Source: Escherichia coli
Lineage (GTDB): Bacteria > Pseudomonadota > Gammaproteobacteria > Enterobacterales > Enterobacteriaceae
Assembly (NCBI RefSeq): GCF_045037415.1
Contig: NZ_CP173438.1
Direction: 5' to 3' (one strand)
Length of the DNA stretch: 64,000 nucleotides
Made by a program: the position numbers. Below, one piece after another: positions 15,001 through 17,368 of the stretch; the first letter of the stretch is position 1; the number at the start of each line of letters is the position of its first letter.

Positions 15001-17368
15001 AAAGCGGGATATCGCCTGGTGATGCTAACCGGGGATAACCCGACCACCGCCAATGCGATCGCCAAAGAAGCAGGGATTGATGAGGTGATAGCCGGCGTGC
15101 TGCCAGACGGTAAAGCCGAAGCGATCAAACGTCTGCAAAGTGAAGGACGTCAGGTGGCAATGGTAGGCGACGGCATTAACGACGCGCCAGCGCTGGCTCA
15201 GGCGGATGTCGGTATTGCGATGGGTGGCGGCAGTGATGTTGCCATTGAAACCGCGGCGATTACCCTGATGCGCCATAGCCTGATGGGTGTTGCGGATGCG
15301 CTTGCAATTTCCCGCGCAACGCTGCGCAACATGAAGCAGAATCTGCTCGGTGCGTTTATCTACAACAGCATTGGTATTCCGGTCGCCGCCGGTATTTTGT
15401 GGCCGTTCACTGGAACACTGCTTAACCCGGTGGTTGCCGGAGCGGCAATGGCGCTCTCGTCGATCACCGTAGTGAGTAACGCCAACCGATTGCTGCGGTT
15501 TAAACCGAAGGAATAAGTACATCATTGCGGATGCGCTGCTTTAGGGTGGCGCATCCGTTATAGGGAAATTATTCTACGCGACCTTTTTTGCACGCTCTTC
15601 ACGGCGTGCCAAATATTCAGCCACTGTTTCAATCCGTCCCAATTCTTCCTGGGTACGCATGTTGTTTTCAACTTCCCAAAGATCAACTGCCGCCTGGAGG
15701 TTTAGCCAAAAATCGACTGTGGTATCAAAAACTTTCGCCAGACGGAATGCCATCTCAGTGGTGAGTTTACGATTGTTATTGATCAGTGCACTGACGCTAT
15801 TACGATGAACATGCAGCAACTCTGCTAACTCATTGATTTTCAAATCGAGCGGTTCCAGATATTCATAGAGAAGAATATCTCCGGGTGTCGTCGGTTTTCT
15901 TGTTGCCTGTTTCATAGTTTTACCTTTCTCGTCAATACGACAGCTATGTTTTAGTAGTTGTGTGGGTCTAAAAACAATTCTTCGGCCTTGCCATTAACCC
16001 ATTTAAAAATCAGTCGGTACTGTTTATTCACTCTAATGGAGGAGTATTCCTGTAATTTCCCGGATAACTCTTCGTATCGGTTCCCCGGAGGGGAGCGTAA
16101 ATCCCGATGAGAAGTGGCAGCATTAATGATGTCCAACTTTCGTGATAACGTGGTATGGATTTCAGCAGGGATCTTTCGATGTGGCGTTGAATGGACAAAA
16201 AAATCAGCCAACCAGGCATCACGAAAACTCCTTATATTTTTCTTTTGAGCCATTCCTCTCTCATCTCCTTGTCCATTATTTAATCATTGTAATGCACACA
16301 AGCACTGTGCACAAGTGCAACAATCAACTCCATTTGCGCCATCCCTCCCCGCGCGCTAGCATGATATTTCACAAAGGGAGGTCGTATGGATCTGTTGTAC
16401 CGGGTAAAAACGCTTTGGGCCGCGCTGCGCGGTAATCATTACACCTGGCCTGCTATCGATATCTCTCTTCCCGGCAATCGCCATTTTCATCTGATCGGCA
16501 GTATTCATATGGGTAGCCACGATATGGCTCCCCTGCCCACCCGTTTGCTCAAAAAGCTCAAAAACGCCGATGCGCTGATCGTCGAGGCGGATGTTTCCAC
16601 CAGCGATACGCCTTTTGCCAATTTGCCTGCCTGCGAGGCCCTGGAAGAGCGCATTAGCGAGGACCAACTCCAAAACCTGCAGCACATTAGCCAGGAGATG
16701 GGCATTTCTCCGTCGCTCTTTTCTACCCAACCGCTGTGGCAAATCGCGATGGTTCTTCAGGCGACGCAGGCGCAAAAACTGGGGCTGCGGGCAGAATACG
16801 GTATCGATTACCAGCTATTGCAGGCGGCTAAGCAACAACATAAACCCGTGATTGAACTGGAAGGGGCTGAAAACCAGATTGCCATGTTGCTCCAGCTCCC
16901 TGACAAAGGACTGGCGCTGCTGGACGATACGCTGACCCACTGGCACACCAACGCACGGTTGCTGCAACAAATGATGAGCTGGTGGCTGAATGCACCGCCG
17001 CAAAATAATGATATAACGCTGCCCAATACGTTCAGTCAGTCGCTGTACGATGTGCTGATGCATCAGCGAAACCTCGCCTGGCGGGACAAATTACGCGCCA
17101 TGCCGCCGGGGCGCTATGTGGTCGCGGTCGGTGCACTACACCTGTATGGAGAAGGGAATTTGCCGCAGATGTTGCGCTAAAAAAATGGCCAATATCGCTA
17201 TTGGCCCGTCAAAGAGGAATTTCATTTTTTTATTATTATGCCGTCACTTTAAGCGACGGTGTAACTCGATTGTCGCTCAATCTCACCATCCTGCCAATAC
17301 TCTTAGGCAAGATGACTCTTTTTTTTGGACCGCCATCAGGCGTATGCTTGCTTCGTTTTTTTGTTTAA

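Follow-up and report, generated by a model that had tools for sequence, protein, structure and literature searches.

The closest relatives of the Escherichia coli antitoxin YbaQ for which DNA complexes have been solved are PaHigA of Pseudomonas aeruginosa (PDB 6JPI) and GraA of Pseudomonas putida (PDB 6FIX), which match YbaQ with E = 1e-10 to 1e-11. Like YbaQ, both are helix-turn-helix (HTH) antitoxins of the HigA family that are encoded after the gene of a HigB-like toxin. The operators of GraA (6FIX) and PaHigA (6JPI/6LB3) consist of a central palindrome and two distal half-sites, spread over about 28-33 bp, and each is bound by two dimers, located on opposite faces of the DNA. In the HigB-HigA system of Proteus vulgaris Rts1, in which the toxin gene comes first, as it does at the locus described here, a dimer of the HTH antitoxin binds inverted repeats that lie over the -35 and -10 elements, and RNA polymerase is excluded; YbaQ is more distantly related to Rts1 HigA (E about 3e-6). 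As for the toxins of these relatives, P. vulgaris HigB is neutral in its effect and GraT de-represses.

The regulatory relationship between YbaQ and the toxin gene higB-1 has already been published. Rousset et al. (bioRxiv 10.1101/2020.05.25.114553) reported that ybaQ is essential only in the five of 18 strains whose higB-1 is intact, which belong to B2 and F, and that ybaQ is non-essential in CFT073, in which higB-1 is truncated. The same authors stated that the YbaQ motif obtained by ChIP-exo (Gao et al. 2018) is present in the higB-1 promoter, and CRISPRi of ybaQ in strain S88 de-repressed higB-1, as measured with RT-qPCR. From this one sentence on the ChIP-exo motif in Rousset et al., we infer that the motif is the 25-bp dyad described below. 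The locus, the genes, and the B2/F distribution in that study are the same as those considered here; the available preprint text gives no operator sequence or architecture, and the layout and conservation of the dyad come from the present analysis. The system is an ordinary example of a class that is well known, and the general understanding of type II toxin-antitoxin regulation is left unchanged by our results. What is added is the exact position of the operator, its architecture, its overlap with the -35 element and the promoter spacer, and its conservation across Enterobacterales. This places, base by base, the most likely control of YbaQ over the toxin that makes ybaQ essential in B2/F E. 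coli, including many extra-intestinal pathogens, and it defines 25 bp that can be targeted precisely by mutagenesis or engineering.

The stretch of DNA analysed here, hereafter called the window, comprises 64,000 nucleotides of an E. coli chromosome of the phylogroup-B2 type, which is 100% identical to SK1144 and 99.9% identical to ATCC 25922. The local layout is as follows, with positions counted in the window:

13012-15516, plus strand: copA.
15574-15915, minus strand: ybaQ, an open reading frame (ORF) of 113 aa for a HigA-family HTH antitoxin/repressor, with matches to HTH_3 and TIGR02607.
15951-16253, minus strand, ATG at 16253: higB-1, an intact ORF of 100 aa for a HigB-like toxin of the RelE/ParE superfamily (PF05015).
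16254-16385: spacer of 132 bp between higB-1 and ybaP, with divergent genes on either side.
16386-17180, plus strand, ATG at 16386: ybaP, the divergent neighbour, of the TraB/GumN family (PF01963).

The toxin matched the Pfam profile of HigB-like proteins (PF05015) with E = 2.7e-32 over 90 of the 91 profile positions, which places it in the HigB-like fold family of the RelE/ParE superfamily, and higB-1 is annotated as a type II toxin-antitoxin toxin in identical E. coli genomes. By family membership, its product is a candidate ribosome-dependent mRNA endonuclease. The product of ybaQ matched both PF01381 (HTH_3) and the NCBIfam model TIGR02607 "HigA family antitoxin" (E = 1.1e-30; 105 bits, where the cut-off is 47.7), i.e., it is a HigA-family protein with an HTH of the Xre type. 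The two genes form a module with reversed gene order, in which the toxin gene (16253-15951) is followed on the same strand, after a gap of 35 nt, by ybaQ (15915-15574); this toxin-to-antitoxin order was identical in all 40 related loci examined below. When complete E. coli genomes were searched with a 1-kb query containing the toxin, 1266 of 5426 gave a match with at least 80% coverage. In K-12, O157, and O111, ybaQ is present and the toxin is absent.

All 113 residues of the window's YbaQ are identical to those of the K-12 protein (PDB 2EBY), and the DNA-binding data obtained for K-12 YbaQ therefore apply to it. Its recognition helix, HRNSVSALINNNR (H-R-N-S-V-S-A-L-I-N-N-N-R), is nearly invariant across the orthologues. 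The protein ends in RREERAKKVA (15574-15603, minus strand), the final Ala being invariant in the orthologues. The sequence RAKKVA is catalogued as a ClpXP C-motif-2 degron and has served synthetic biologists as a degradation tag; such a degron would fit a labile antitoxin.

According to the original prediction, the spacer at 16254-16385 contains overlapping palindromic and repeated motifs. These motifs are real, and enumeration by a script located them at 16294-16319. The sequence gcacacaagcac lies at 16294-16305, ctgtgcacaagtgca at 16305-16319, and TGTGCACA at 16306-16313. The script listed three inverted repeats, TGCACA-N7-TGTGCA at 16293-16311, GCACT-N7-AGTGC at 16302-16318, and TGCAC-AA-GTGCA at 16308-16319, together with the direct repeats CACAAG and TGCACA in the spacer. 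A general repeat finder with a seed of 6 nt detected none of the inverted repeats in the spacer, because the arms are too short (4-6 bp) for it. All of the listed repeats reduce to one dyad, GCAC-N4-GCAC-N-GTGC-N4-GTGC, which has the following parts:

16294-16318: the operator dyad of 25 bp, GCAC-ACAA-GCAC-T-GTGC-ACAA-GTGC, with its axis at 16306.
16294-97, 16302-05, 16307-10, and 16315-18: the four tetramers of the dyad, with start-to-start spacings of 8, 5, and 8 bp.

The dyad pattern is unique in the 64-kb window, where it had a single match even when two mismatches were allowed (0.06 matches expected). The 17-nt half pattern GCACNGTGCNNNNGTGC had two matches in the window, one on each strand and both inside the dyad, where 0.01 were expected.

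A consensus promoter scan of the spacer called no promoter; the higB-1 promoter was missed because its -35 element matches the consensus at only 3/6 positions. We predicted this promoter from cross-species conservation instead, and its elements are placed as follows:

16314-16309, minus strand: predicted -35 element, TTGTGC, in which TTG is conserved at a fixed distance of 17 nt from TAnnnT.
16291-16286, minus strand: predicted -10 element, TACAAT, in the conserved TAc.aT block.

In the ungapped alignment of 32 loci, TTG(c/t)GC and TAc.aT stand at a fixed distance of 17 nt, and APEC O1 and most orthologues have TTGCGC as the -35 element. Transcription is predicted to start near 16279 (minus strand), and the leader would then be about 26 nt long. 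The dyad spans the predicted -35 element and ends within 2 nt of the predicted -10 element, and it overlaps the promoter as predicted here: one tetramer lies upstream of the -35 element, one overlaps it, and two are in the 17-nt spacer between the elements.

The distribution of the dyad was followed outside E. coli by aligning homologous toxins and by scanning one genome per species with toxin peptide patterns alone. This procedure yielded 40 loci in other genera, including Citrobacter, Kluyvera, Kosakonia, Enterobacter, Lelliottia, Leclercia, Pantoea, Erwinia, Yersinia, Pectobacterium, Brenneria, Sodalis, and Buttiauxella. Upstream of the toxin or of a toxin remnant, the dyad was found exactly in 28 of the 40 loci and with at most one mismatch in 39; at the sole locus without it (L044), the 5' half of the toxin gene is missing. 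A YbaQ-like gene with 63-83% identity follows the toxin directly at every locus. Neither ybaP nor copA occurred within 1.5 kb at any of the 40 loci, and the genomic contexts therefore differ from that in E. coli. Many of the Enterobacter loci share common flanks and are not independent, which leaves well over a dozen distinct contexts. The consensus of the 32 upstream regions that were aligned (ungapped, in the toxin sense) was AtGCACTTGcGCACaGTGCatgaGTGCatTAc.aT between unconserved flanks. The information content of these 32 loci was ~2 bits per position in the four tetramers, the distal ones being conserved as well as the central ones, and ~0 in the flanks.

The dyad also occurs on plasmids. 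A copy of the module on a Salmonella plasmid has the same dyad, and a 4.5-kb ColE1-type plasmid of Klebsiella pneumoniae (L046:500-575) carries a tandem pair of full 25-bp dyads, and the toxin downstream of them shares 58% identity with that of the window. The dyad travels with a YbaQ-like antitoxin whatever the genomic context and, judged from these sequences, the operator is built into the toxin/antitoxin cassette and moves with it across Enterobacterales.

Within E. coli, 1222 genomes carry the dyad-bearing stretch. Three variant strains were aligned, and none of their substitutions falls in any of the tetramers (A16311G in APEC O1 and BH100; A16319G and changes in the leader in strain 201609). 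The stretch TGTGCACA reads TGTGCGCA in APEC O1, in BH100, and in most orthologues, and it is therefore not the conserved centre. On this point, the original prediction was correct in finding palindromy but not in centring it on TGTGCACA, as the conserved unit is the set of four GCAC/GTGC tetramers around the axis. The original prediction placed the repeats in the divergent higB-like/ybaP promoter region; the operator belongs to the toxin promoter and not to ybaP, beside which lies the following part of the spacer:

16326-16385, plus strand: ybaP-proximal half of the spacer, outside the toxin-antitoxin module.

This half is nearly identical in K-12, O157, O111, and LP50, none of which has the toxin or the operator, and also in strain 06-00048, which has neither toxin-antitoxin gene. 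Because the ybaP-proximal spacer persists without the toxin or the dyad, we assign the operator to the toxin cassette, of which it would form the 5' end, and not to a divergent control element shared with ybaP. A putative ybaP promoter can plausibly be placed in this half of the spacer (TTGCGC at 16334-39 and TAGCAT at 16357-62, separated by 17 nt). Control of ybaP by the dyad was considered and found to be unsupported: ybaP and its proximal spacer are unchanged where the dyad is absent, and ybaP never stands beside the module elsewhere.

We compared the dyad with the known operators of the HigA family. The GraA operator, AAATTAACGAATAACGTTAAGCATTCAGCT, can be written as TAAC-N3-TAAC-GTTA-N3-ATTC, which is the same layout as that of the YbaQ dyad, and the dyad likewise has a central palindrome and two distal half-sites, as do the operators of the GraA/PaHigA type. 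The spacings are 8/5/8 in the YbaQ dyad and 7/4/7 in the GraA operator, i.e., each is 1 bp longer in the former, and the half-site is GCAC in the YbaQ dyad, compared with TAAC or TTAAC in GraA/PaHigA. A further difference lies in the distal sites, which are conserved in sequence in the YbaQ dyad, whereas they are non-specific in GraA, where distal substitutions have a <10-fold effect. The low specificity of the distal half-sites that characterizes the GraA/PaHigA type is a trait that the YbaQ dyad does not share. At the protein level, the alignment of YbaQ with PaHigA is free of gaps from residue 6 to residue 79 and both have Arg49, but the recognition helices differ (H37 R38 N39 S40 ... A43 in YbaQ vs. 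S A P T ... D43 in PaHigA), and these differing residues would agree with the different half-site sequence. The Rts1 system has a different architecture, with separate 21-bp operators, O1 and O2, each of which binds one dimer in a non-cooperative manner, in contrast to the one compact dyad with four half-sites found here.

We consider it highly probable that the repeats are the operator of a self-repressing higB-1/ybaQ type II toxin-antitoxin operon, with four half-sites that are bound by YbaQ. The original prediction of an autoregulatory toxin-antitoxin operator for the HTH antitoxin is supported by the overlap with the promoter, by the conservation of the dyad with the module, and by the published repression by YbaQ. 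The proposed mechanism is as follows. The dyad would extend from just upstream of the -35 element across this element and over most of the 17-nt spacer, and YbaQ dimers bound to it would block RNA polymerase, by which the higB-1/ybaQ operon would repress itself. By analogy, the most likely arrangement would be two dimers, each of which joins one distal half-site with the oppositely oriented central half-site. The partner half-sites are 13 bp apart from centre to centre in the dyad, compared with 11 bp when counted on the GraA operator sequence, and the two-dimer model is therefore only an analogy. When the level of YbaQ, which carries a ClpXP degron, drops, the transcription of higB-1 and ybaQ would increase. 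That YbaQ contacts exactly these bases, and with what stoichiometry, as well as the transcription start and the part played by the toxin, are matters that we infer.

Some of the conservation in this block must reflect the promoter, because the TTG and TAnnnT elements stand inside it at the canonical spacing of 17 nt. It is nevertheless very unlikely that the block is a promoter alone (the -35 element, the spacer, the -10 element, and perhaps an UP-like element) in which the palindromy is incidental. The best-conserved positions are those of the four tetramers, of which one is upstream of the -35 element and two are in the spacer. In sigma-70 promoters, positions upstream of the -35 element and in the spacer are not normally conserved, and the spacer holds little sequence information; the block therefore needs an explanation beyond promoter conservation. 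Furthermore, the tetramers form a strict dyad, the whole of which is duplicated in tandem on the Klebsiella plasmid, and repression by YbaQ has been shown in published experiments.

Still less credible is the binding of the dyad by a host regulator other than YbaQ, e.g., an NtrC-like factor, which might control ybaP. The motifs TGCAC and GTGCA resemble NtrC half-sites, and they lie in a divergent spacer beside ybaP. An NtrC-like site is TGCACC-N5-GGTGCA, but the spacings in the dyad, N2, N7, and N9, do not fit N5. Moreover, the dyad moves with the module of the toxin and a YbaQ-like antitoxin to unrelated contexts and to plasmids, without ybaP, whereas K-12 and O157, which have no such module, keep ybaP and the proximal spacer and have no dyad. 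An NtrC-like site was rejected on the basis of the spacing and of the co-inheritance of the dyad with the module. The least probable explanation, a chance cluster of palindromes or a DNA/RNA hairpin or cruciform with no protein partner, would suit arms of only 4-6 bp and the blank result of the general repeat finder, but it is effectively refuted by the uniqueness of the dyad, by its retention in 39 of the 40 loci, by its position upstream of the predicted transcription start and hence outside the mRNA, and by the single-strand fold of the region, which was no better than that of shuffled sequences (z = -0.8; 38 of 200 shuffles folded equally well), so that nucleic-acid structure is not the explanation and a hairpin or cruciform was rejected.

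The reading of the dyad as the YbaQ operator can be extended in two directions, and we regard the combination of the two as doubtful. In this combination, two dimers would sit on opposite faces of the DNA as in GraA, with all four half-sites being sequence-specific and the spacings 1 bp longer, and the promoter of the solo ybaQ in the toxin-less lineages would be a homologue from which the tetramers have been erased. Regarding the latter, the DNA upstream of the solo ybaQ of K-12, O157, and O111 (L001:975-1111) is identical to window positions 16286-16319 at 21 of 34 positions in an ungapped comparison, a value that was reached by 4 of 2000 shuffles. The promoter geometry of the K-12-type solo ybaQ consists of TTGTTT, a 17-nt spacer, and CAGTAT, and all four GCAC/GTGC tetramers are destroyed. 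When the K-12 upstream region was aligned, 133 of 500 shuffles were as good in the local alignment and 227 of 1000 in the global alignment, so neither was significant; significance was confined to the ungapped block of 34 nt. Homology between the K-12 solo ybaQ promoter and the higB-1 promoter may be taken as a lead, not as a result. If it is true, the "domesticated" antitoxin would have shed its autorepression and would be free for other targets. In the same K-12 spacer between ybaQ and ybaP, the block diverges by about 40%, whereas the DNA of ybaQ and ybaP beside it diverges by about 2%.

Several loci showed further peculiarities. In about eight of the 40 species representatives (L005, L018, L043, L015, L039, L041, L042, and L044), the toxin ORF either is truncated, with a length of 23, 26, or 68 aa, or lacks its 5' end. 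These loci have a full-length YbaQ-like gene and, in most cases, the dyad, which points to recurrent decay of the toxin with retention of the antitoxin, as in E. coli. E. coli strain 06-00048 (L050:240-500), without higB-1 and ybaQ, keeps ACGCACTGTGCACAAGTGCAACAATC with three of the four tetramers, next to REP-like DNA. It is a deletion scar with its breakpoint inside the operator (compared with window 16300-16330). Short tandem repeats were found near the start of the module in two species. In Brenneria sp. 4F2 (L030, about 1390-1436), a tandem array of several GCACTTAC units, each of 8 nt, leads directly into the first operator half-site, and the period of this expansion equals the half-site spacing of 8 bp. 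In Escherichia albertii (L007, about 1480-1510), the heptamer ATGACCA is repeated four times in tandem at the start codon of the toxin, and slippage in this array could alter the toxin start or its reading frame.
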